45,508 nt of DNA, taken from Patescibacteria group bacterium. GTDB taxonomy: Bacteria > Patescibacteriota > Patescibacteriia > UBA11705 > JABHMO01. Position 1 is the first letter of the stretch; the number at the start of each line of letters is the position of its first letter. The stretch is taken from positions 1-45,508 of the forward strand of contig JAHIRY010000040.1 of NCBI GenBank assembly GCA_018818405.1, read 5' to 3'. The notes beneath the pieces are model-generated. The model saw nothing but the letters and a program-made list of their open reading frames with translations, had not been told where the DNA came from and made no database searches. Of the stretch, positions 10,408-45,508 are shown piece by piece. A program made the translations under genes and the position numbers.

Positions 10408-10548
10408 TTATTTTTTTCCTTTGCCCGATGTTCTCGCGGCGGCAAAACGGGAAGTCTCCGAACCGCTTACTTTGGAAGAAGAACCGCGCGGACGCAATTT
10501 GTCTTGTTTTCTCTGCAAATATTTTTGCATCGGTGTTTTGTATTTCAT
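10408..10548 (-). CDS. Putative small basic protein (46 aa)
   Basis: Below ORF-track cutoff; MKYKTPMQKYLQRKQDKLRPRGSSSKVSGSETSRFAAARTSGKGKK; extended -10 TGATATAAT just upstream. Confidence 0.4.
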   Translation of the reverse strand: MKYKTPMQKYLQRKQDKLRPRGSSSKVSGSETSRFAAARTSGKGKK

Positions 10549-35362: not shown

Positions 35363-35401
35363 TCTTATACGAAAACATTTCGCATAAGAACGAGTTATAT
35401 G
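35363..35401 (+). other. attI-like primary recombination site
   Basis: Hairpin TCTTATACGAAA-ACA-TTTCGCATAAGA, then ACGA and core GTTATATG; CGCATA box shared with attC right arms. Confidence 0.7.
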
Positions 35402-35622
35402 AAATACATGTTTTCCTTTTGGGGCTATCGCCCCAGCTCTTAAAAAGAATCCGATTTTGTTTTTCTTTTATTATAGAGGGGAAATATGGAGTTTTCTTCG
35501 CTACGCTACGAAAACATTTATTTTATAAGGGGAATAAGCGGTATTTCCTCCGCTTCGCTCCGGAAACGGTTTATTTATTAGGGGAAAACGAATACAATAA
35601 CATTTGTTAAAACATAATAACT

Positions 35623-38214
35623 ATGGCAAACGATAAAGAAGCAAAAGCGCGAATAAAAATTAATAAACTCCTTGAGGATTCAGGGTGGCGTTTTGATGAT
35701 TCTAAAAATGGAAAAGCCAACATCCAACTTGAGGCTGGCGTAAAATTCAATGAACTCGATGAAAATTTAGAAAACGCCGTAACCAGCGATGGTCGTCGCG
35801 GAGCAATTGATTTTCTCTTACTTGATAAAGACGGACGCGCGCTTGTCGTATTAGAAGCAAAAAAAGAATCAATTGATCCACTTTCCGCAAAAGAACAAGC
35901 TAGAAATTATGCACGCAACGTCAATGCACGTTTTGTAATTCTTTCAAACGGCAATATTCATTATTTTTGGGACACTAAACATGGCAATCCGGAAGTGATT
36001 TCTAGATTTCCTACCCAAGATTCAATTACTCAATTCGAAAAATGGGAACCAAATCCAAAAGAATTGGCCGAAACAAAAGTAGATGAAAATTATATTATTG
36101 AATCCCAAATGCCGGGATTTGCCAACGATCCAACTTTTCAAAATACCGACACACGAGGAGAATTTCTAAAAAACAACAATTTAAAACAACTCCGACCTTA
36201 TCAAGTAAACGCAATAAAAAGCCTTCAAACTTCGGCGCAATCAGGACAGAATCGCTTTTTGTTTGAAATGGCAACAGGCACAGGCAAAACCCTTATTTCC
36301 GCCGCCGTCATCAAGTTATTTCTCAAATCAGGCAATGCGCGCAGAGTTTTGTTTTTAGTAGATCGTCTTGAACTTGAAGATCAAGCATTTAAGGCATTTA
36401 GAAACTATTTGGGGCATGATTATGGAACTGTAATTTACAAAGATTCTCACGATTCTTGGCAGAACGCACAAATTGTCGTTTCCACAATTCAGACATTTCT
36501 TGCCGGAGACAGATACAAAAAAGATTTTTCGCCAACCGATTTTGAATTTGTTATTTCCGATGAAGCCCATCGTTCAATTGGAGGAAACAGTCGTGCCGTA
36601 TTTGAATATTTTGTCGGCTATAAATTGGGATTAACCGCTACTCCAAAAGATTATCTAAGAGGATTTGACGGAGAAAATGGCGACACTCAAAGAGAATTTG
36701 AAAGAAGGCAACTTCTCGATACTTACAAAACTTTTGGCTGTGAATCAGGCGAACCAACTTTTCGCTATGATCTTGTCGCCGGAGTAAATGATGGATTTTT
36801 GATCAATCCGATTGTGGTAGACGCACGGACAGAGATAACCACTGATTTGCTTTCCGACGAAGGATTGGCAGTTCACAAAACAAATGAAAATGGCGAATCA
36901 ACTGATGACATTTTCAACGAACGGCATTATGAGCGTAAATTTTTCAACGAGGAAACCAACATCGCCATGTGTAAGGCGTTTATGGATAATGCGCTTTTTG
37001 ATCCAATGGCAAAAAAACGAGGCATTGAATTGTTTGGCAAATCAATTGTTTTCTGTGTTTCTCAAAGGCATGCTGCCAAAATTACCAATATTCTCAACAA
37101 ACTAGCTTTTGAGAAATGGCCAGATCAATACAATGAATCAGATTTTGCCGTTCAAGTTACTTCTCTAGTACAAAACGCCCAGCAAATGACTATAAATTTT
37201 GCCAATAACATGCTTTCAGGCAAGGTACGACAACCCGAAGGCTATGATTCCAGTAAGACCAGAATTGCTGTAACTGTGGGGATGATGACTACTGGCTATG
37301 ATTGCCAGGATATTTTAAATCTTGCTTTGATGCGCCCTGTTTTTTCTCCGGCTGATTTTGTGCAAATCAAAGGGCGTGGCACTCGCAAATATACTTTTGA
37401 ATATGAAGATTATAATTCGGACGAAACTATCGCAGAACCAAAAGAACATTTTAAATTTTTCGATTTCTTTGCAACCTGCGAATACTTTGAAAATGAGTTT
37501 CCTTATGATGAAAAAATTAAACTCCCTGTAGTAAAACAAATTAAATCCGTTGAAGATATTGTTAAAAACCAAGCTAAACAAGGCGAGTTTGTCGATGAAA
37601 ACGGAAACAAAATTTTCAAAGGTCCAATTGACTTGGCAGAAAGCGACGAAGTGGCATCAATAACAGAAACACCGGTCGGAGTAGAAGGTATGCGAATTGA
37701 CCGCGAAGGATTCAAGAGAGCGGTAGAAGAAGATATACGCGGAAACGAAACCCTCAAAAACCTTTGGGAAAATGGCGATACTGAAGAAGCCGAAGATTTT
37801 GCTAAAAAACATGTACTTGATAAACCAAAATATTTTCTCAATCTTGATAAAATTCGTAAAATTTTCAATGTTGATCGTCGAATTAGCGTCAAAGAATTTT
37901 TGCAGGTTGCCTTTGGTGACAAAGATACCTTTGAAATGAAAGATGATTTATTGGAATCAGAATGGGATAAATTTCAAGAAGTAAATTTCAATAATCAGGA
38001 AATTGAAACAGAAAAATATCAAGCGATAAAAATGTTTTTCAAAGCGTATATCGTAGACGAAGAAGTCCGCGATATTATTAAACGAAACCAGCCGGCGGAC
38101 TTTTATCACTGTGCTTCATTTGATTTTTCCGAATATCAAAGACTAAATGGCTTTAAAGAACTCGTGCCAAGATACATCAAAGATTATGTATCACTTAATA
38201 CTTTTATGAATTAG
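35623..38214 (+). CDS. hsdR: Type I restriction enzyme R subunit
   Basis: D...EAK nuclease motif, ATGTGKT, DEAHRS, LTATP, MMTTGYD, QIKGRGTR. Confidence 0.93.
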   Translation: MANDKEAKARIKINKLLEDSGWRFDDSKNGKANIQLEAGVKFNELDENLENAVTSDGRRGAIDFLLLDKDGRALVVLEAKKESIDPLSAKEQARNYARNVNARFVILSNGNIHYFWDTKHGNPEVISRFPTQDSITQFEKWEPNPKELAETKVDENYIIESQMPGFANDPTFQNTDTRGEFLKNNNLKQLRPYQVNAIKSLQTSAQSGQNRFLFEMATGTGKTLISAAVIKLFLKSGNARRVLFLVDRLELEDQAFKAFRNYLGHDYGTVIYKDSHDSWQNAQIVVSTIQTFLAGDRYKKDFSPTDFEFVISDEAHRSIGGNSRAVFEYFVGYKLGLTATPKDYLRGFDGENGDTQREFERRQLLDTYKTFGCESGEPTFRYDLVAGVNDGFLINPIVVDARTEITTDLLSDEGLAVHKTNENGESTDDIFNERHYERKFFNEETNIAMCKAFMDNALFDPMAKKRGIELFGKSIVFCVSQRHAAKITNILNKLAFEKWPDQYNESDFAVQVTSLVQNAQQMTINFANNMLSGKVRQPEGYDSSKTRIAVTVGMMTTGYDCQDILNLALMRPVFSPADFVQIKGRGTRKYTFEYEDYNSDETIAEPKEHFKFFDFFATCEYFENEFPYDEKIKLPVVKQIKSVEDIVKNQAKQGEFVDENGNKIFKGPIDLAESDEVASITETPVGVEGMRIDREGFKRAVEEDIRGNETLKNLWENGDTEEAEDFAKKHVLDKPKYFLNLDKIRKIFNVDRRISVKEFLQVAFGDKDTFEMKDDLLESEWDKFQEVNFNNQEIETEKYQAIKMFFKAYIVDEEVRDIIKRNQPADFYHCASFDFSEYQRLNGFKELVPRYIKDYVSLNTFMN

Positions 38215-38216
38215 AC

Positions 38217-38474
38217 ATGTCTAAAAATAAAAAAAAACAAACAATCGGATTTTGGGATAAGGGAAAAGAAACAACACTTATTAATTGTTCTAGCGAAGGT
38301 TTTGATATTGGCCTAAAGTCAGAGGGTGAAGGGCTACTGGCTAAAAATTTTAAATCGCTAGGTAATACTACAAATTCTGATTGGTATGAAAAATGGTGGA
38401 TGAAATATATTATTTTTCCTCTTGCTGTACTAATCATTGGAGCTTTTGTTATTTTTTATATTGGATTAAATTAA
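38217..38474 (+). CDS. Small protein with C-terminal TM helix within the R-M operon
   Basis: 85 aa; 2 nt after hsdR stop and 4 nt before hsdM start; WWMKYIIFPLAVLIIGAFVIFYIG. Confidence 0.7.
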   Translation: MSKNKKKQTIGFWDKGKETTLINCSSEGFDIGLKSEGEGLLAKNFKSLGNTTNSDWYEKWWMKYIIFPLAVLIIGAFVIFYIGLN

Positions 38475-38478
38475 AACT

Positions 38479-40980
38479 ATGCTTACATCAGAAACAAAAC
38501 GACATATTGATGCGGCTAGGCAAGTCCTCGTGGGCGTAGTGCCAAACCCAACATCACAAATTGATCAGATTACCAACGCGCTGATCTATAAATTTATGGA
38601 TGACATGGATCAATCGGCTATAAAAGCCGGTGGCTCACCATCTTTTTTTACTGATGATTTGGAAAGATATGCTTGGACACGCCTGATGGATAGCAGACTT
38701 GGCAATCAAGAAAGAATGAATCTGTATTCAGAAGCTCTGATTAAATTTTCGCAAGCTAAACAATTACCCGAACTTTTTAGAAATATTTTTAAATCCGCAT
38801 TTTTGCCATATCGCTCACCGGAAGTTTTAGGATTATTTTTAAAAGAAATAAATTATTTTGATTATTCTCACCCAGAAGATTTGGGCGATGGCTATGAATA
38901 TTTGCTTTCAATCATGTCCTCTCAAGGCGATGCAGGACAATTCCGCACCCCTCGCCATATTATTGATTTTATCGTTGATGCTATCAACCCGACAAAAGAC
39001 GACAAAGTACTTGATCCTGCTTGCGGAACAGGTGGATTCTTGGTCAGCTCATACAAGCATATATTAGAACAACACGACGGCAAAAATGATCCGGAAAAGA
39101 AAGAAAAACCGCTCACCCCAGATGACAGAAGAAAACTTTTTCAAAACTTTGAAGGATATGATATCGATCCAGGCATGGTGCGAATTGCGCAGGTCAATAT
39201 GTATCTGCATCAATTCAAAAATCCGAAAATTTTTCAATACGACACTTTGGGAATGGATGAACGCTGGAATGACAAGTTTGATGTAATACTCGCCAATCCG
39301 CCGTTTATGTCGCCAAAAGGTGGTGTTCGTCCGCATAGTAAATTTAGCGTGCAGTCGAGCCGATCAGAGGTTTTGTTTGTGGACTACATCATGAACCACT
39401 TGAAACCCAAAGGCCGAGCAGGTGTAATCGTACCAGAAGGAATTATTTTTCAATCAGGAAGTGCGCACAAACAACTTCGCAAAAACCTCGTCAATGACGG
39501 GCTGTATGCAGTCGTGAGCTTGCCAAGTGGAGTGTTTCAGCCATACAGCGGTGTAAAAACCAGTATTTTGCTTTTTGATAATGAACAAGCGAAGCAACGA
39601 AGTGAGGTTTTGTTTGTAAAAGTGGAAAATGACGGCTTTGATCCGGGCGCAACAAAAAGACCTATTAGCAAAAACGATTTGCCGACTGCTTTGGATATTT
39701 TAGACAAATGGAAAACTGGCGAGAAAGTGGAAAGCAAGTTGGCGGTTTATGTAGAAAAATCCAAAATTGCTGAAAACGGAGACTACAATCTTTCCGGTGA
39801 TCGCTATCGTGTAGCAACAGATTACAGCAATGCAAAATGGCCGATGGTGGAGTTGGGAGAGGTTTCAGAAATATTAAACGGCTACGCTTTCAAGAGTGAA
39901 AAATACACAAACAATGGTATTCGAGTTATTCGAATTACAAATGTACAAAAAGGTAAAATTGTTGATGATGATCCTAAGTTTTACTCTGAAGATTCAATTA
40001 ACGAAATTGGGAAATTTTTACTCGCTAAAAGTGATCTTTTGATTTCTCTCACTGGTAATGTCGGTAGAGTTGGATTGTTACAATCTGACTTATTGCCAGC
40101 CGGACTGAATCAACGAGTTGGTTGTATTCGTCTAAATGACAGCAAACAAGTTTCAATCAGTTATCTTTTTCATGTATTGAATACAGAATTATTTGAAGAT
40201 GATTGTATAAGAGCTTCAAGTGGTGTTGCACAGAAAAATTTAAGTACAGAATGGTTGAAAAAATATCAAATTCCTGTCCCACCTCTCGAAATTCAAGAGC
40301 AAATTGTGGCCGAGTTGGACGGCTACGCAGGCATAATCTCCGGCGCCAAACAAATCTCCCAAAATTGGAAACCAAAAATTGACATCGATCCGGAGTGGGA
40401 GAAAGTGAAGCTGGGGGAAATTGCAACGCTTGTTCAAGGTATAAATACTGCGGTGGATAAGCTTCACTATATTGAAGATGGTATAAAGGTTTTGCAAGCA
40501 AATAATATTTATCAAGGATCTGTGAATTTTGATAATTTAAAATTTATAACTGCAAAAGAATTTTCAGCGATTAACACAAAATACAAACCCACGAAAGAAG
40601 ATGTTTTATATTCAAATATCGGTGCTAGATTTGGGTATGCTTCAACTATAGATTTTGATGATAAATTTACATTTTCCTGGAATGTTATGAGAATGGTTAT
40701 TTTAGATAAATCAAAACTAGACAAATTTTATCTAAAAAATATTCTTAATTCTGATTTACTTCGACAGGTTGTGCTAAGTCAAGCATCAACAAGTACGATG
40801 CCATTTATATCTGGAAAAGATTTGAAGGCAATCGAAATCCCTCTTCCACCTCTCGTTATTCAAAAGCAAATCGTGAAAAAAATCGAGGCCGAGCGCACGC
40901 TGGTGGAATCTGCCAAAAAGTTGATTGATATTTACGAAGAAAAAACAAAAGAAACGATTTCTAAACTGTGGAATGAATAA
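38479..40980 (+). CDS. hsdM-hsdS: Fused type I methyltransferase-specificity subunit (HsdM-HsdS)
   Basis: GQFRTP, DPACGTGG, NPPF (m6A); two target recognition domains closed by PPLEIQEQIV and PPLVIQKQIV. Confidence 0.92.
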   Translation: MLTSETKRHIDAARQVLVGVVPNPTSQIDQITNALIYKFMDDMDQSAIKAGGSPSFFTDDLERYAWTRLMDSRLGNQERMNLYSEALIKFSQAKQLPELFRNIFKSAFLPYRSPEVLGLFLKEINYFDYSHPEDLGDGYEYLLSIMSSQGDAGQFRTPRHIIDFIVDAINPTKDDKVLDPACGTGGFLVSSYKHILEQHDGKNDPEKKEKPLTPDDRRKLFQNFEGYDIDPGMVRIAQVNMYLHQFKNPKIFQYDTLGMDERWNDKFDVILANPPFMSPKGGVRPHSKFSVQSSRSEVLFVDYIMNHLKPKGRAGVIVPEGIIFQSGSAHKQLRKNLVNDGLYAVVSLPSGVFQPYSGVKTSILLFDNEQAKQRSEVLFVKVENDGFDPGATKRPISKNDLPTALDILDKWKTGEKVESKLAVYVEKSKIAENGDYNLSGDRYRVATDYSNAKWPMVELGEVSEILNGYAFKSEKYTNNGIRVIRITNVQKGKIVDDDPKFYSEDSINEIGKFLLAKSDLLISLTGNVGRVGLLQSDLLPAGLNQRVGCIRLNDSKQVSISYLFHVLNTELFEDDCIRASSGVAQKNLSTEWLKKYQIPVPPLEIQEQIVAELDGYAGIISGAKQISQNWKPKIDIDPEWEKVKLGEIATLVQGINTAVDKLHYIEDGIKVLQANNIYQGSVNFDNLKFITAKEFSAINTKYKPTKEDVLYSNIGARFGYASTIDFDDKFTFSWNVMRMVILDKSKLDKFYLKNILNSDLLRQVVLSQASTSTMPFISGKDLKAIEIPLPPLVIQKQIVKKIEAERTLVESAKKLIDIYEEKTKETISKLWNE

Positions 40981-40987
40981 ATAAATT

Positions 40988-42781
40988 ATGCCTCATATAA
41001 TCAAGCACAATTTACTGAAAAAAACTCTCGACGAAATCGCAGAGACTGCGCCGGATCATCTGACGATTTACCATCCGGACGAGAGCGATCAAGATGGCCA
41101 AATTCACAAATATTCTCGGACACAAATCCACCTTTTTTTAAGAGTCCATTTTGGATTATTAGACTTTAATATTGCCGAAGATCAGATTACTGACGGCACA
41201 GATGACGGTGGTCTGGATGCGTATCATATTGACGCAGAAAAGAAAACTATCTATCTTATACAATCAAAATATAAAACTACCCCGGAAGGATACCTTAACA
41301 ATGATGTCGATTGGCGCGAATTCTTTAAAATGGAGCTAGATCGTATTGTCCAAGGCGAAACGGCCTCGTCATCAGGTCACCAATATAATGGAAAAATAAG
41401 AGGTCTCCAACAAAAAATTGGAGAAATTGCTGATATAGCACGGTGGAACTATACACTGATATATTTAGGAAATGTCCCTTCTGCTATTACAAAAGAAAGG
41501 TTGTTAACTGTCAGCGGTGGAGTTTGCACAAACACAGAGATACTACACGGAAACGATTTCTATAACCAAGTTTTAATCCCATATCTTAAGCGTGACTTTT
41601 ACGACAAAGAAGACTTCTCCTTTGAGATATACATCAATCAAGAACGATCAGCAAATCGTATCAGATATTCCGTTGATTTAGCTGATGGCGAATCTGCGGA
41701 GGTCCAGCTTTGTTTTGTCCCAACAATGGAAATAGCAAGGATGATGTCGCAATACAGAAATTCGATTTTACAATACAATCCACGTTGTTATGTAGGTATC
41801 AAAAATACCGGTGTTAATGCTGACATCAGAGACTCAGTTTCTAACACGGCACATAATGAATTTTCATTACTTAACAATGGCATTACCGTTGTCTGCAATG
41901 AGGTAAATTACAACGATAATACTGCGCAACGAGGAAGAGCTTCAATTACTGTATCTAATCCACAGATAGTAAATGGCGGTCAAACAGCGTTTACTTTAGC
42001 ACATCTATTTGAGAATAATTCTGACAATTCAATTTTTGACGGAAAAGAAGTTCTCACAAAATTTATAATTATTGTAGGCAATCGAGATGAAATGATAGAA
42101 AAAATATCTAATGCTACCAATAATCAAAATCCAATAAGGCCAAGGGATAAAGCCTCAAATGATCTAAAAATGATTCAATTGCAGTCGGGCCTCTTTGATC
42201 AATATGGCGTTCTACTCGAAAGAAAGCAGGGAGAATTTTATGACTCGATAAAAGAGGGTCTTATAGACAAAAAAAATGTAATAGACAGCGTTATTCTTAT
42301 GCGTCTTTTGCTTGTATATCGTGGTTCAGTTGCAAGAGCAAGAAGTGCTGGAGAGGGTGTGCTTTTTAGAGATTACAACCTTGACGGAGTTGAAGTTAGC
42401 GAAATTTATAAGCTCATTCGAATTTACAATAAAATCTCTAATCTCGACCAACCTAGTGAAAGAGATGGACGAAAACGTTACCAAATTAATATCTGGGGTA
42501 ATGGACTTAGATACGGTCAATGGGCTATTATATATGCAGTTTATCAATTATCTAAATCCGGTGAAAATCTTAATGATTGTTTGAATCGTGTTCAATCACG
42601 ATGGATAGATTTCGAAACTACTGTTGCAAATCATGAACATAATCAAAGTTATTCTTCTGACGGCTTCGATTATGCAAACTATTATAAAGGAAGTACCATT
42701 GATCGAGATTTAAATGAATATATCCCTAATATAGGAGAATTAGTAGAATCAAAAACCGATGTGGAAATTCCGAAGATATAA
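40988..42781 (+). CDS. AIPR family (abortive infection phage resistance) protein
   Basis: DGTDDGGLDA...IQSKY nuclease-like N-terminus; NPRCYVG, LLNNGIT, PQIVNGGQT, ATNNQN. Confidence 0.88.
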   Translation: MPHIIKHNLLKKTLDEIAETAPDHLTIYHPDESDQDGQIHKYSRTQIHLFLRVHFGLLDFNIAEDQITDGTDDGGLDAYHIDAEKKTIYLIQSKYKTTPEGYLNNDVDWREFFKMELDRIVQGETASSSGHQYNGKIRGLQQKIGEIADIARWNYTLIYLGNVPSAITKERLLTVSGGVCTNTEILHGNDFYNQVLIPYLKRDFYDKEDFSFEIYINQERSANRIRYSVDLADGESAEVQLCFVPTMEIARMMSQYRNSILQYNPRCYVGIKNTGVNADIRDSVSNTAHNEFSLLNNGITVVCNEVNYNDNTAQRGRASITVSNPQIVNGGQTAFTLAHLFENNSDNSIFDGKEVLTKFIIIVGNRDEMIEKISNATNNQNPIRPRDKASNDLKMIQLQSGLFDQYGVLLERKQGEFYDSIKEGLIDKKNVIDSVILMRLLLVYRGSVARARSAGEGVLFRDYNLDGVEVSEIYKLIRIYNKISNLDQPSERDGRKRYQINIWGNGLRYGQWAIIYAVYQLSKSGENLNDCLNRVQSRWIDFETTVANHEHNQSYSSDGFDYANYYKGSTIDRDLNEYIPNIGELVESKTDVEIPKI

Positions 42782-42977
42782 AATAATAGTGTGTTTTCGG
42801 TCGGGGCAATTCACCCCTTTTCTTCCCCTCTTGCCCCTCCCTCAAACAGAAATAGGAGTTTTGGGCTTCGGGCATTCACCCCTAACCCCTCTGCCCTTCG
42901 CCCAAAACAGAAAAACAAAATCAGATTCTTTTTAAGAGCGATTTGCTATCGCAAATCAAAAGGAAAACATGTACATC

Positions 42978-43104
42978 ATATAACACTGCGTATGCGGTTA
43001 CGGCTTGCTCCGTACCTCCGCAAGCCTACACCCATATTTGCCAGTGGTAAGCACTTCGTGCAATTATACCACTGGCAAACATCGCATACGCAGGAACGTT
43101 AGCT
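42978..43104 (+). other. attC-like site 1 (127 bp)
   Basis: ATATAAC...GTTAGCT; arms CTGCGTATGCG/CGCATACGCAG. Confidence 0.85.
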
Positions 43105-43123
43105 GAAATTTTAAAATTTATTT

Positions 43124-43837
43124 ATGCCTGAAAAATATAATAATCCGTCGCCCCCAGAAAAAGAAAGTGGATTTTATAGCGACATCGTTCGGCGGTATGA
43201 AACAGAAGTAAATCGCTTTGTTCCAGGTTATGCTGAGGAAATTGTTCCTCTCGTAACTGGTGAAGTAATCAGAAAAGCTCATAACGGAGCTGTTTTAGAC
43301 CTTGGCTCTGGCGTAGGGAATGTAGATGAAATCATTATAGATCAAGCAAACCCTCAATCCATTGACTTAGTTGAAATTTTAGAGCCAATGATTGAAGAAT
43401 CTAAAAAGCGATTGGAAGATAAAAATTCCACCATTCGTTTTCATGAGATGTCCGCTGAAGATTTTGAAGCCGAACCAAATAGTTTTAATGCAGTACTGTC
43501 AAACCTTGTTATTCACAATATCCCTTATGAAGACAAAGTTAGACTTATAAGCAATATTCATAAGTGGCTTAAAGATGGTGGAATTTTTATCTGGACTGAT
43601 CTTGTGAGCTTTTCTGATACCGCCGAACTCGAAAGATGTTTTGAAGAGCGTAAAAAAATAGCCATTTCGATGGGGGCGACTGAGGAATTCGCAGAAGAGA
43701 ATTTTAAAAAGGAACGAGAAGAAGATAATATGATTACCGTTGAACAAATGACTGAAATGCTACAACAAGCTGGTTTTCAAAATATTGAAATTCTCTGGAC
43801 TCGGTACAATGAAGTGGTCATGCGAGCAACGAAATAA
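43124..43837 (+). CDS. Class I SAM-dependent methyltransferase (loosely CmoA-like), cassette 2
   Basis: VLDLGSGVG motif I, NLVIHN, LKDGGIF. Confidence 0.85.
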   Translation: MPEKYNNPSPPEKESGFYSDIVRRYETEVNRFVPGYAEEIVPLVTGEVIRKAHNGAVLDLGSGVGNVDEIIIDQANPQSIDLVEILEPMIEESKKRLEDKNSTIRFHEMSAEDFEAEPNSFNAVLSNLVIHNIPYEDKVRLISNIHKWLKDGGIFIWTDLVSFSDTAELERCFEERKKIAISMGATEEFAEENFKKEREEDNMITVEQMTEMLQQAGFQNIEILWTRYNEVVMRATK

Positions 43838-43850
43838 ATTTTAAAACATC

Positions 43851-43926
43851 AGCTAACATTGAATATCTGGTTCCGCTTCGCTCCACCCAAATTGCTCGCA
43901 ACTTCAGATATCCAGAAACGTTGTAC
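43851..43926 (+). other. attC-like site 2 (76 bp)
   Basis: AGCTAAC...GTTGTAC; arms TTGAATATCTG/CAGATATCCAG. Confidence 0.85.
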
Positions 43927-44174
43927 GAAATTCCAACTAGTAAACGAGGTAGATTGAAAGTTTGTGCAAACAAAAAAGCACGTCTTAAAAACGAACTTTT
44001 AACTGATTACCCGTCGGAACTGTCGTACAACACCGAGTATGCGGTTGCGTGAAGAAGAAATTATTGATTTTTCTTTTCATTTTAAATCTGGCTCTTTTCA
44101 ATTTTTTCTATCAGAAAGTGAAGCGCCCTGCCCGAGATGTCTCGAACAGGGCGTGATCTATGACATGAAGGAAG

Positions 44175-44549
44175 CTACGGACCCTCGAACATGATCCGCC
44201 TGCCAACCGCCCGATTGTATGCGCTGTCCTCTCCCGTCAAATCCTTTGACGTATTGTTACCCATTGCGAAAATGGTTGCGAACAGATCTGACACCATCGG
44301 GCGATCAATGCTGTCAAGTGCCAGAAGCGCTGTAAACACTGAACTGACTGGATCAGAACTCCCTGTTGCATTGTCGAGGTTGTGAGTCGAGAACTCTCTG
44401 TGAGACACCACGTATCCACCATCAGGGTTATAGCTCTTGAGCCACGCTTCCCTGTCTTTGATGAAAAGTGCTGCATCATCACCACTCAGAAGATGCCAAG
44501 AGGTTGCCAGTTCGGCACCCTCAGCGACACGCACGAAAACATGCTTCAT
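44175..44549 (-). CDS. Hypothetical 124-aa protein inside attC3, antisense to the array
   Basis: AGGAGG SD 7 nt before ATG; own promoter; hairpin 44124-44153 after the stop. Confidence 0.7.
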   Translation of the reverse strand: MKHVFVRVAEGAELATSWHLLSGDDAALFIKDREAWLKSYNPDGGYVVSHREFSTHNLDNATGSSDPVSSVFTALLALDSIDRPMVSDLFATIFAMGNNTSKDLTGEDSAYNRAVGRRIMFEGP

Positions 44550-44589
44550 GTTTTACCCTCCTAAATTCGTCGCGGAATTGCGACTTCAT

Positions 44590-44619
44590 ATATTAGCAGA
44601 TCCACACCCCACCTGTCAA
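44590..44619 (-). promoter_or_regulatory. Promoter of the attC-embedded gene
   Basis: TTGACA-N18-TAATAT with extended TG. Confidence 0.65.
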
Positions 44620-44879
44620 GCCAACGAGGGACGAAAAAATTGAAAAGAGCCCTAAATTAAGGAAAAAAATCAATAATTTCTTCTTCACTCCACCCAAATC
44701 CCGCTCTTGAAATTGAGGGTTTTAAGGGGTAAAATAGGTTGGTGTTGAAGCGAAAGTTTGTACTAAAAACGAAGGGCGGGACTTCGCATACTCGGGGACG
44801 TTAAACGTAATCAGTAAAGTGGCTATAAAGTGGAAGTCGTTCCGATAACTTTTTTAATTAGTATCATTTTTTAATTAAC

Positions 44880-45506
44880 ATGACTCAAATCGTAGAAACT
44901 TGCAAATTCGTTGTTGATAATTCTCAACACGTAAAAATAAACTTGGAAAAGGTTGATGAGTTTGTCAATTATTTTAGTCATTCCCATATCAAACATTGGT
45001 TTAATGAATCGCCCTTTAATATTAGAAATTTAGCCCCCAAAGAAAGATTGCATTTTTTATTGGTGTTTAATTCGATTAGTTTTTCTTATTGGGGAGATCC
45101 AAAATGGAGAATTAATTATCATTCCAAAGAAATAGATGGAGCCTATGGAATGATTGGAGCAATTGGCAGAGCAATTGAAAATAAGACTCCCATTTTGGAT
45201 GCAAAATTTCTTTCTGAGATTAAAGAAGAAGAGTTTAGTAAAATTTTAGAAGGAACTGTTCAAATTCCTCTTTTTGAAGATAGATTAAATATTTTGCGAG
45301 AAATTGGAACAATCCTCTTGGAAAAATTTGAAGGCGATTTTACTAACCTCATCAATCAAGCCAATGGCGATTCACAAAAATTATTGAGTTTGATAATTGA
45401 GAATTTTCCTTCTTTTAATGACTCCTCAATTTACAATGGAAGACAAGTTTATTTTTACAAGCGTGCACAACTTTTAGTTGCTGATGTTGTGCAAGCTTTC
45501 AACGGA
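44880..45506 (+). CDS. Queuosine salvage protein (Qng1/DUF2419 family), partial, cassette 4
   Basis: Not in ORF track; manual translation MTQIVETCKFVVDNSQHVKIN...FNSISFSYWG...IPLFEDR...FPSFNDSSIYNGRQVYFYKRAQLLVAD. Confidence 0.85.
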   Translation, partial: MTQIVETCKFVVDNSQHVKINLEKVDEFVNYFSHSHIKHWFNESPFNIRNLAPKERLHFLLVFNSISFSYWGDPKWRINYHSKEIDGAYGMIGAIGRAIENKTPILDAKFLSEIKEEEFSKILEGTVQIPLFEDRLNILREIGTILLEKFEGDFTNLINQANGDSQKLLSLIIENFPSFNDSSIYNGRQVYFYKRAQLLVADVVQAFNG

Positions 45507-45508
45507 CA

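Follow-up and report, generated by a model that had tools for sequence, protein, structure and literature searches.

Integrons are thought to descend from Xer-type recombinases, enzymes which cut at the inner edge of their binding arm, and within the Xer world itself the CTX phage uses a folded single-stranded hairpin that imitates dif. In integrons, both the insertion that marks the integrase IntI and the extrahelical bases of the attC site are held to enable the recombination of folded single strands (PMC4792948, PMC2727003). The extrahelical bases of the classical L stem serve there as strand markers, and they are read by the IntI insertion (PMC2727003, PMC4792948). The present analysis deals with a cassette array of a Patescibacteria group bacterium (assembly GCA_018818405.1, contig JAHIRY010000040.1), contained in a stretch of 45,508 nucleotides (nt) which will be referred to as the window. 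The array lies on the plus strand, with a tyrosine recombinase gene divergent from it, and is composed, in this order, of an attI-like site, cassette 1, core 1, cassette 2, core 2, cassette 3, core 3 and cassette 4 (Table 1). Each core is built, in order, of AAC and A, of an arm of 11 nt and its complement with a loop between them, and then of RRAC and GTT. The two ends of a cassette form long terminal inverted repeats with one mismatch at a fixed place, and it seems rather probable that they represent the lower (R-side) stem of an attC-type site belonging to that same cassette, with one strand at either end.

An earlier note on this DNA had claimed that the complementarity of the cassette ends goes far beyond the usual 7-8-nt core and that the same two positions are mismatched in each case, and both claims were confirmed. 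In cassette 1, 26 of the 28 outer nucleotides are paired (93%; 35394-35421 with 42957-42984), and the further block that had been reported turned out to measure 34 nt, 32 of them paired (94%; 35436-35469 with 42906-42939). The repeat of cassette 2 covers 29 nt with 90% pairing (43095-43123 with 43832-43860) or, counted from GTT, 24 of 26 positions (43098-43123 with 43832-43857). Its open reading frame (ORF, 43124-43837) has the ATG at position 27 and the stop codon within the 3' arm, so that the repeat, as described, reaches the former and covers the latter. In both cassettes the sole mismatches of the outer block fall at positions 10-11 from GTT, with AA on the start side (35403-35404 in cassette 1, 43107-43108 in cassette 2) and CA on the top strand of the end side (42974-42975 and 43847-43848), which reads TG when reverse-complemented. 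Also as reported, the ends of cassette 3 are paired over 9 bases and then over about 13 of 18, with a one-base bulge. By chance, shuffled arms reach at most 18 of 26 anywhere downstream. In the class 1 integron of pMG252 (blaCARB-2, aadA2, cmlA, catB11), used as a control, the ends pair over 7, 12, 8 and 8 bases, and the matches over positions 13-26 (5, 2, 3 and 4 of 14) are at the chance level.

The relatives of the recombinase provided 60 loci, nearly all of them from Patescibacteria genomes, in which a structural scan for the pattern AAC-N-arm...arm-NNNN-GTT detected 57 attC-like sites on the array strand and none on the opposite strand. The logo of both cassette ends, which the earlier note had proposed as a check, was built from these related arrays. 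The cassette starts follow the consensus GTTAnnyGAAAT (A10 and A11 in 46/51 each, T12 in 42/51), and the reverse complement of the cassette ends follows GTTAkryGATGT (G8 and A9 in 55/57 each, T10 in 42/57, G11 in 46/57). AAC and GTT show no variation, A occupies position 4 and a pyrimidine position 7, and positions 8-12 are conserved throughout the family on both sides, as GAAAT at the start and ACATC at the end. The mismatch at positions 10-11 thereby takes the form of A.A and A.C on the top strand, and of T.T and T.G on the bottom strand. The same asymmetry was obtained when no flank criteria at all were imposed, in a set that includes some false sites. The AA-vs-TG mismatch is, in fact, a fixed family rule of the site. 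The set of 32 cassettes used below for covariation was chosen by patterns which already exclude pairing at position 10, a bias from which the logos, being chosen by structure, are free.

Beyond position 12 the pairing continues, with sequences that are private to each cassette. Starts and ends were paired on positions 1-12 only, giving 32 cassettes from more than 20 genomes, and at least 11 of the 14 positions between 13 and 26 proved to be paired in 24 of them, all 14 in 16. In the ungapped alignment A1, 92.7% of the cells were paired, compared with 62.9% in shuffles, and the covariation score was 0.756 against 0.176, with none of 500 shuffles as high; when the partner was displaced by one, two or three columns, pairing dropped to 35-49%. 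All four pair types occur at each of the positions 13-21, and the arms of unrelated cassettes have nothing in common past position 12. Pairing amounts to at least 96% at positions 13-23, to 83%, 88% and 75% at positions 24, 25 and 26, and to 42% at position 27, position 26 being the commonest end of the stem. Of 336 cells, 320 are Watson-Crick pairs, with a single top-strand G.T wobble. An attC site and the cassette that happens to follow it match, on average, at 3.6 of the 14 positions. Compared with the class 1 control, the stems of Patescibacteria cassettes are really longer than the usual core.

Where a cassette is compact and has one gene, 24-42 nt separate GTT from the start of the ORF and 17-31 nt separate its stop from AAC, which means that the stem makes up nearly all of the non-coding DNA. 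Long cassettes have an extra local hairpin in each arm, followed by a second stem of about 30 bp, and this plan of three parts was met, with sequences that differ, in at least nine cassettes. A subclass of cassette ends (L016, L035, L036, L040, C23 and C48) shows no pairing at positions 13-26; here GGTC or CCTC replaces CATC, a GC-rich local hairpin lies beside the end-side arm (R''), and the cores that follow often have the arms AGGGATATACG or AGGATTATGAG and a 3-nt spacer.

The arms are also under purifying selection. A protein database search returned orthologues of the cassette 2 methyltransferase with 70-86% protein identity, and eight of them were compared together with their flanks, six lying in arrays and two outside. 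One of the six is placed directly behind an attI beside a recombinase gene, and the others behind various attC cores. Their coding sequences are 83-88% identical at the nucleotide level and 70-78% at third positions; the 5' arm is identical at 24-26 of 26 positions, with a single-base deletion in one case, and the 3' arm at 25-26 of 26. Thus, in orthologous cassettes the arms change about 10 times more slowly than synonymous sites. In the two copies outside arrays (L074 and L075), which are probably cassettes fixed in the chromosome, the arms have decayed; L074 is found between a gene for a major facilitator superfamily transporter and another gene. Moreover, in related families with long ends the differences are mirrored, at several positions, in the partner arm. 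A metagenome scan with the cassette 2 protein gave the window's own metagenome contig as the sole match.

The folding energies depend on which ends are brought together. In its circle form (end, core 2 and own start), cassette 2 gives a continuous hairpin of -26.2 kcal/mol as DNA (z-score -6.5) on the bottom strand and of -20.0 kcal/mol (z-score -5.0) on the top strand. In the array, with core 2 followed by the start of cassette 3, the value is -7.6 kcal/mol (z-score +0.7) and the R helix is not formed. Over 15 cassettes, the circle form gains on average 16.5 kcal/mol of stability over the in-array form, and in 14 of them the bottom strand folds better than the top one. This better folding and the covariation of the arms are indirect signs that, as in integrons, the folded bottom strand may be the one recombined.

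If the repeats are the R-side stem, the complete site would exist only after excision, in a circle, probably single-stranded, in which the two cassette ends meet. This site would comprise a variable terminal loop, an 11-bp L stem free of bulges, an internal loop of 1 vs 4 nt and an R stem of about 26 bp, with the crossover taking place inside the hairpin at G/TT, 26 bp above its base. Upon integration the two strands of the R stem would be parted, one of them being carried to the opposite end of the cassette, and terminal inverted repeats would result. Positions 1-12 (GTTAnnyGAAAT with ACATCrnnTAAC) would form the recombinase-binding arm, 11 bp long as in Xer/dif and cut at its inner edge; by this analogy we infer that TTAnnyGAAAT is the binding arm proper and G/TT its inner edge. 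Positions 13-26 would act as a sequence-free clamp, closing the mismatch and holding the arm as a duplex in the free folded circle. What the sequences show is the anatomy and its conservation within the family, the covariation and common length of the stems, the selection on the arms, the junctions at GTT, and the lack of both the IntI insertion and bulged bases; a substrate of folded single-stranded DNA and the binding of the recombinase at positions 1-12 are inferred. The mismatch and the 1-vs-4 loop would be the remaining asymmetric features, and hence the candidates for setting strand choice and cassette orientation. The earlier note had proposed that the asymmetric positions may replace the missing IntI domain. 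Since the recombinase is devoid of the IntI insertion and the L stems of extrahelical bases, the mismatch is plausible as a strand or orientation mark, or as a binding determinant, and what it would replace are the absent extrahelical bases, not the protein domain itself.

The position of the crossover can be read from cassettes found in more than one place. In the assembly, cassette 2 occurs behind two different cores (contigs C16 and C5), and cassette 3 is preceded by core 2 on C16 and immediately by an attI-like site on C1, while cassette 1 and its relative in locus L052 have common ends behind different attI flanks. In every one of these cases identity begins at GTT, and such junctions fit the classical G/TT crossover. 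Cassette 3 itself is present three times in the assembly (window, C1 and C30), in different contexts and with about 93% identity, and two of the differences between copies improve the pairing of the arms; a small RNA may be its product, or it may simply be empty. The cores behave as exchangeable too. Core 1 is 99% identical to the core of L052, L035:3190 is 92% identical to L073:1432, and L036:3098 is 99% identical to L040:14411; in the latter two pairs the cassettes on both sides are unrelated, and identity begins right after AAC. At least two core types follow the orthologues of cassette 2, and none of 10 pairs of similar cores had a common downstream cassette.

Site polarity is strict. The 36 perfect sites have 11-bp L stems with no bulge and keep the 1-vs-4 (or 3) spacing. 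In a motif census, ACGTTnnnnGAAAT occurred 28 times on the array strand and never on the other, ACATCnnnnAACA was found 45 times on the array strand vs 2 on the other, and neither ACGTTnnnnGATGT nor any end-type motif at cassette starts was encountered. A common register in which the L arms, the left arm of attI and the R arm could be aligned was also sought and was rejected, the L arms (nnGnrTATnyG) being unlike the R arm in any register.

With regard to the enzyme, the best family match of the array recombinase is TIGR02249, the model of integron integrases, which is aligned in two stretches with 223.8 bits, below the cut-off of 265, and whose positions 178-236 remain unmatched. The best solved structure is that of IntI4 (2A3V), the residues 203-239 of which have no counterpart in the array recombinase, and IntI1 is about 45 residues longer over the same span. 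XerA has the same length as the array recombinase, and its structures align with it end to end. A second recombinase, encoded on contig C40, is a better match to XerD and XerC (246 bits). Since a more Xer-like enzyme is thus encoded elsewhere in the genome, the array enzyme is probably dedicated to the array, and the idea that the array is served by the host Xer and dif alone is weakened. The attI site lies about 115 nt upstream of the recombinase gene and its plan, TTCGyATAA...AACGA/GTT, is conserved in related loci; 17 of its 22 arm positions are common with E. coli dif, GGTGCGCATAA-TGTATA-TTATGTTAAAT (sequence as given in PMC3025954). Another attI-like site, 87% identical to the attI region of the window, was seen on the minus strand of contig C1 (about 10437-10506), behind an RNase Y-like gene and with no recombinase gene adjoining; next in order come a copy of cassette 3 and an attC core 3 with a different gene in its loop.

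Several results weigh against the assignment of the repeats to the R-side stem. Eight of the 32 cassettes have no extension, which is hence not strictly required. Two orthologues of cassette 2 (L068 and L071) have a changed core in the start-side arm (R'; AAGT and AGGT) vs an unchanged R'' (AGCT), with positions 9-26 unaltered, so that positions 4-7 may sometimes travel with the upstream core. Within the array, R'' pairs with the next R' through the conserved positions only and folds weakly. Copy-correction of one arm by the other, and not selection, might also explain why the Watson-Crick pairing is so nearly perfect. Finally, attC cores are not tied to the upstream cassette, which a crossover at G/TT only does not predict. 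As there is neither an IntI insertion nor extrahelical bases, strand choice may be relaxed. Tentatively, and with the odds rather against it, both folded strands would be cut, at G/TT in R' (bottom) and at AA/C in R'' (top). Cassettes (GTT...AAC) and attC cores would then be independent alternating modules, each having the two strands of a helix to itself (the private R stem of 26 bp or the L stem of 11 bp) and with genes in either loop, and the system would stand between Xer/dif and IntI/attC, uniting the logic of integrons with that of dif modules.

Other explanations of the repeats were also considered. They could be functionless leftovers of the origin of cassettes, formed when a gene entered the loop of a palindrome or by inverted duplication. 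Units of arms and loop without an ORF do exist (cassette 3, and mini-units in L041, L025 and L014), genes are also found within the loops of attC cores, and the window and L052 have end modules (about 185 and 200 nt) with 92% identity around different cargo. Such an origin is, all the same, unlikely to account for the repeats. The arms covary across unrelated cassettes, and related end families differ at several positions in both arms alike; the stems stop at a length common to the family and carry a mismatch that is fixed in sequence, and the arms are about 10 times more conserved than synonymous sites and decay outside arrays, all of which argues for a maintained functional stem and not for a fossil. 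The suggestion of the earlier note that the repeats may record how genes are captured is not, therefore, supported. The transposon view, according to which cassettes are small transposons inserted at attC by chance, finds some basis in the terminal inverted repeats of 26-72 nt, typical of such elements, and in the sequence families formed by the long end modules. It is hardly credible, given that the repeats begin exactly at the GTT/AAC crossover triplets and contain the family-wide site motif, that every motif-bearing start in the window's genome adjoins an attC-like hairpin, that the arms of unrelated cassettes differ past position 12, and that neither a transposase nor a target duplication was seen.

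A double-stranded system comparable to the dif modules of Acinetobacter, with the repeats as inward-facing binding arms plus accessory sequence, would agree with the dif-like attI and with cassettes and attC cores that alternate and are separately exchangeable, much as C and D modules alternate between inversely oriented 28-bp sites (PMC13141974). This is quite improbable: the junction spacings differ (4 nt + G vs 1 nt) and their orientation is kept in the 36 perfect sites, the motif census contains no inverted module whereas dif modules invert, a single recombinase gene lies beside the array, and arms which are free in sequence but covary are something that double-stranded recognition does not need. 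An action of the arms in RNA, where the untranslated 5' and 3' ends of a cassette's transcript, once paired, would serve for its processing, stabilisation or silencing, might be suspected from the fact that the arms are almost the entire untranslated flanks, reaching the start codon and covering the stop codon, and that the local hairpins of long arms keep the same sense-strand loop in both arms. It must be regarded as very improbable, since G-U type pairs account for 1 of 336 cells, in 14 of 15 cassettes it is the antisense (bottom) strand that has the better fold, a distance of 7.5 kb separates the arms of cassette 1, the inner 12 bases match recombination-site motifs found at attI too, and an Rfam search returned nothing at threshold.

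Table 1. Features of the recombinase-cassette array in the window (positions on the forward strand)
Feature	Position	Strand	Remarks
Tyrosine recombinase gene, 270 aa	34466..35278	-	closest to integron integrases; without IntI-specific insertion
attI-like core, ATTTCGCATAA-GAACGAG-TTATATGAAAT (11-7-11)	35377..35405	+	right arm doubles as cassette 1 start
Cassette 1 5' arm, stem 1, GTTATATGAAAT + 16 nt	35394..35421	+	repeat 26/28; mismatch AA 35403-35404
Local hairpin in cassette 1 5' arm, GGGGC-TATC-GCCCC	35422..35435	+	first G common with stem 1
Cassette 1 5' arm, stem 2	35436..35469	+	34-nt repeat, 94%
Cassette 1 cargo: type I restriction subunit R, 85-aa ORF, fused M-S subunit, AIPR protein	35623..42781	+	
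Cassette 1 3' arm, stem 2	42906..42939	+	34-nt repeat, 94%
Local hairpin in cassette 1 3' arm, GATTTGC-TATC-GCAAATC	42940..42957	+	
Cassette 1 3' arm, stem 1, ending in ACATCATATAAC	42957..42984	+	mismatch CA 42974-42975
attC core 1: A, 11-nt arm CTGCGTATGCG, branched loop, arm CGCATACGCAG, GAAC	42985..43097	+	
Cassette 2 5' arm, GTTAGCTGAAATTTTAAAATTTATTT	43098..43123	+	ends at ATG
Cassette 2 cargo: class I S-adenosylmethionine-dependent methyltransferase, 237 aa	43124..43837	+	
Cassette 2 3' arm, AAATAAATTTTAAAACATCAGCTAAC	43832..43857	+	overlaps stop codon
attC core 2, arms TTGAATATCTG and CAGATATCCAG, spacer AAAC	43858..43919	+	
Cassette 3, 112 nt, without ORF; ends GTTGTACGAAATTCC and GGAACTGTCGTACAAC	43920..44031	+	
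attC core 3, arms CCGAGTATGCG and CGCATACTCGG	44032..44799	+	minus-strand ORF 44175-44549 inside one loop hairpin
Cassette 4 start (GTTAAACGTAAT...), queuosine-salvage gene	44800..45508	+	continues past window end

Cassette 1 has a size of 7.6 kb, and many of the large cassettes are carriers of anti-phage defence genes. Its end modules, of about 185 nt on the left (35394-35580) and about 200 nt on the right (42792-42984), are those found 92% identical in L052 around a different cargo, and related modules flank type IIG and HaeIII restriction-modification systems, an N4/N6 methylase, and Shedu or Fic genes (L052, L043, L025, L041, L002 and C23). Conserved end modules seem to be reused as carriers of defence genes, mostly in the first position. 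The local hairpins of the arms of cassette 1 (35421-35435 and 42940-42957) and those of L052, L043, L025, L001 and L031 are not mirror copies of each other: the top strand has the same loop, TATC or TTC, in both arms. In L052, the counterpart of the hairpin at 42940-42957 is AATTTCT-TTC-AGAAATT, with three compensated pairs, a pattern which points to a possible strand-specific role. A function as terminators was discarded, given that the T runs lie before the hairpins and not after them on either strand. Short hairpin units of the form GTT...AAC, with CGCTTCGCTCC or CGCTACGCT in their loops, are scattered through the end modules of cassette 1 (35480-35590 and 42800-42905), attC loops and the mini-cassettes of other loci.

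The system appears to be widespread in Patescibacteria, and no description of integrons of Patescibacteria or the candidate phyla radiation, nor of extended repeats at cassette ends, was found in the searchable full-text literature. Standard integron finders need the IntI insertion and would miss a recombinase of this kind. The anatomy provides, in turn, a rule for finding cassettes in ultra-small bacteria: GTTAnnyGAAAT, the cassette, and ACATCrnnTAAC, with private pairing to position 26. If the reading of the repeats as the R-side stem is true, an integron layout which does without both the protein insertion and the extrahelical bases, and has instead a long cassette-specific stem with a fixed mismatch, would be a second way to build a structure-specific recombination site and would offer a natural system in which to examine what determines strand choice and orientation.

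Among the known systems, the dif modules of Acinetobacter plasmids also consist of two alternating types bounded by inverted copies of the arms and exchanged independently (PMC13141974). Their pdif sites, unlike the ones described here, are fixed double-stranded sequences of 28 bp, the same in both orientations, in which a 6-bp spacer separates an XerC arm from a distinct XerD arm, whereas in the Patescibacteria arrays the arms vary but covary, the junction spacings differ and polarity is never inverted. With the single-recombinase Xer/dif systems (archaeal XerA, XerH and XerS) the array has in common the 11-bp arms, a centre of 6-7 bp and the likeness of attI to E. coli dif (17/22). Both these systems and the dif-integrating elements differ from it in that long arrays are present here, with a private stem for each cassette, and that there are no phage or replication genes. 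Elements that enter a chromosomal dif rely on the recombinase by which the host resolves chromosome dimers and on its single dif site; the present genome has the dif-like attI, the second recombinase and the second attI-like site mentioned above.

The classical integrons are alike in the divergent recombinase gene, the attI site upstream and the co-oriented cassettes, in the AAC...GTT cores near RYYYAAC/GTTRRRY with paired inner arms (57 sites) and a variable terminal loop, in the GTT junctions, and in the fact that integron integrases are the best matches of the array recombinase. The C that precedes GTT in the array (G after AAC on the bottom strand) has its equivalent in most attC sites, where G follows AAC on the bottom strand (PMC2727003). 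Where classical sites have an unpaired central spacer between the R and L boxes, a conserved asymmetric loop (A vs RRAC, 1 vs 4 nt) is found here, shorter than that spacer and different from it. Nevertheless, the array recombinase has no IntI-specific insertion (I2 helix) and the L stem no extrahelical bases, and the R stem has about 26 bp with a fixed 2x2 mismatch, compared with 7-12 bp in the class 1 array. In addition, the attC core is not tied to the upstream cassette, and attI is a dif-like pair of inverted arms. The system is consequently set beside the integrons and not within them, since the IntI insertion, the extrahelical bases and the linkage between attC and cassette were each looked for and each found to be absent.

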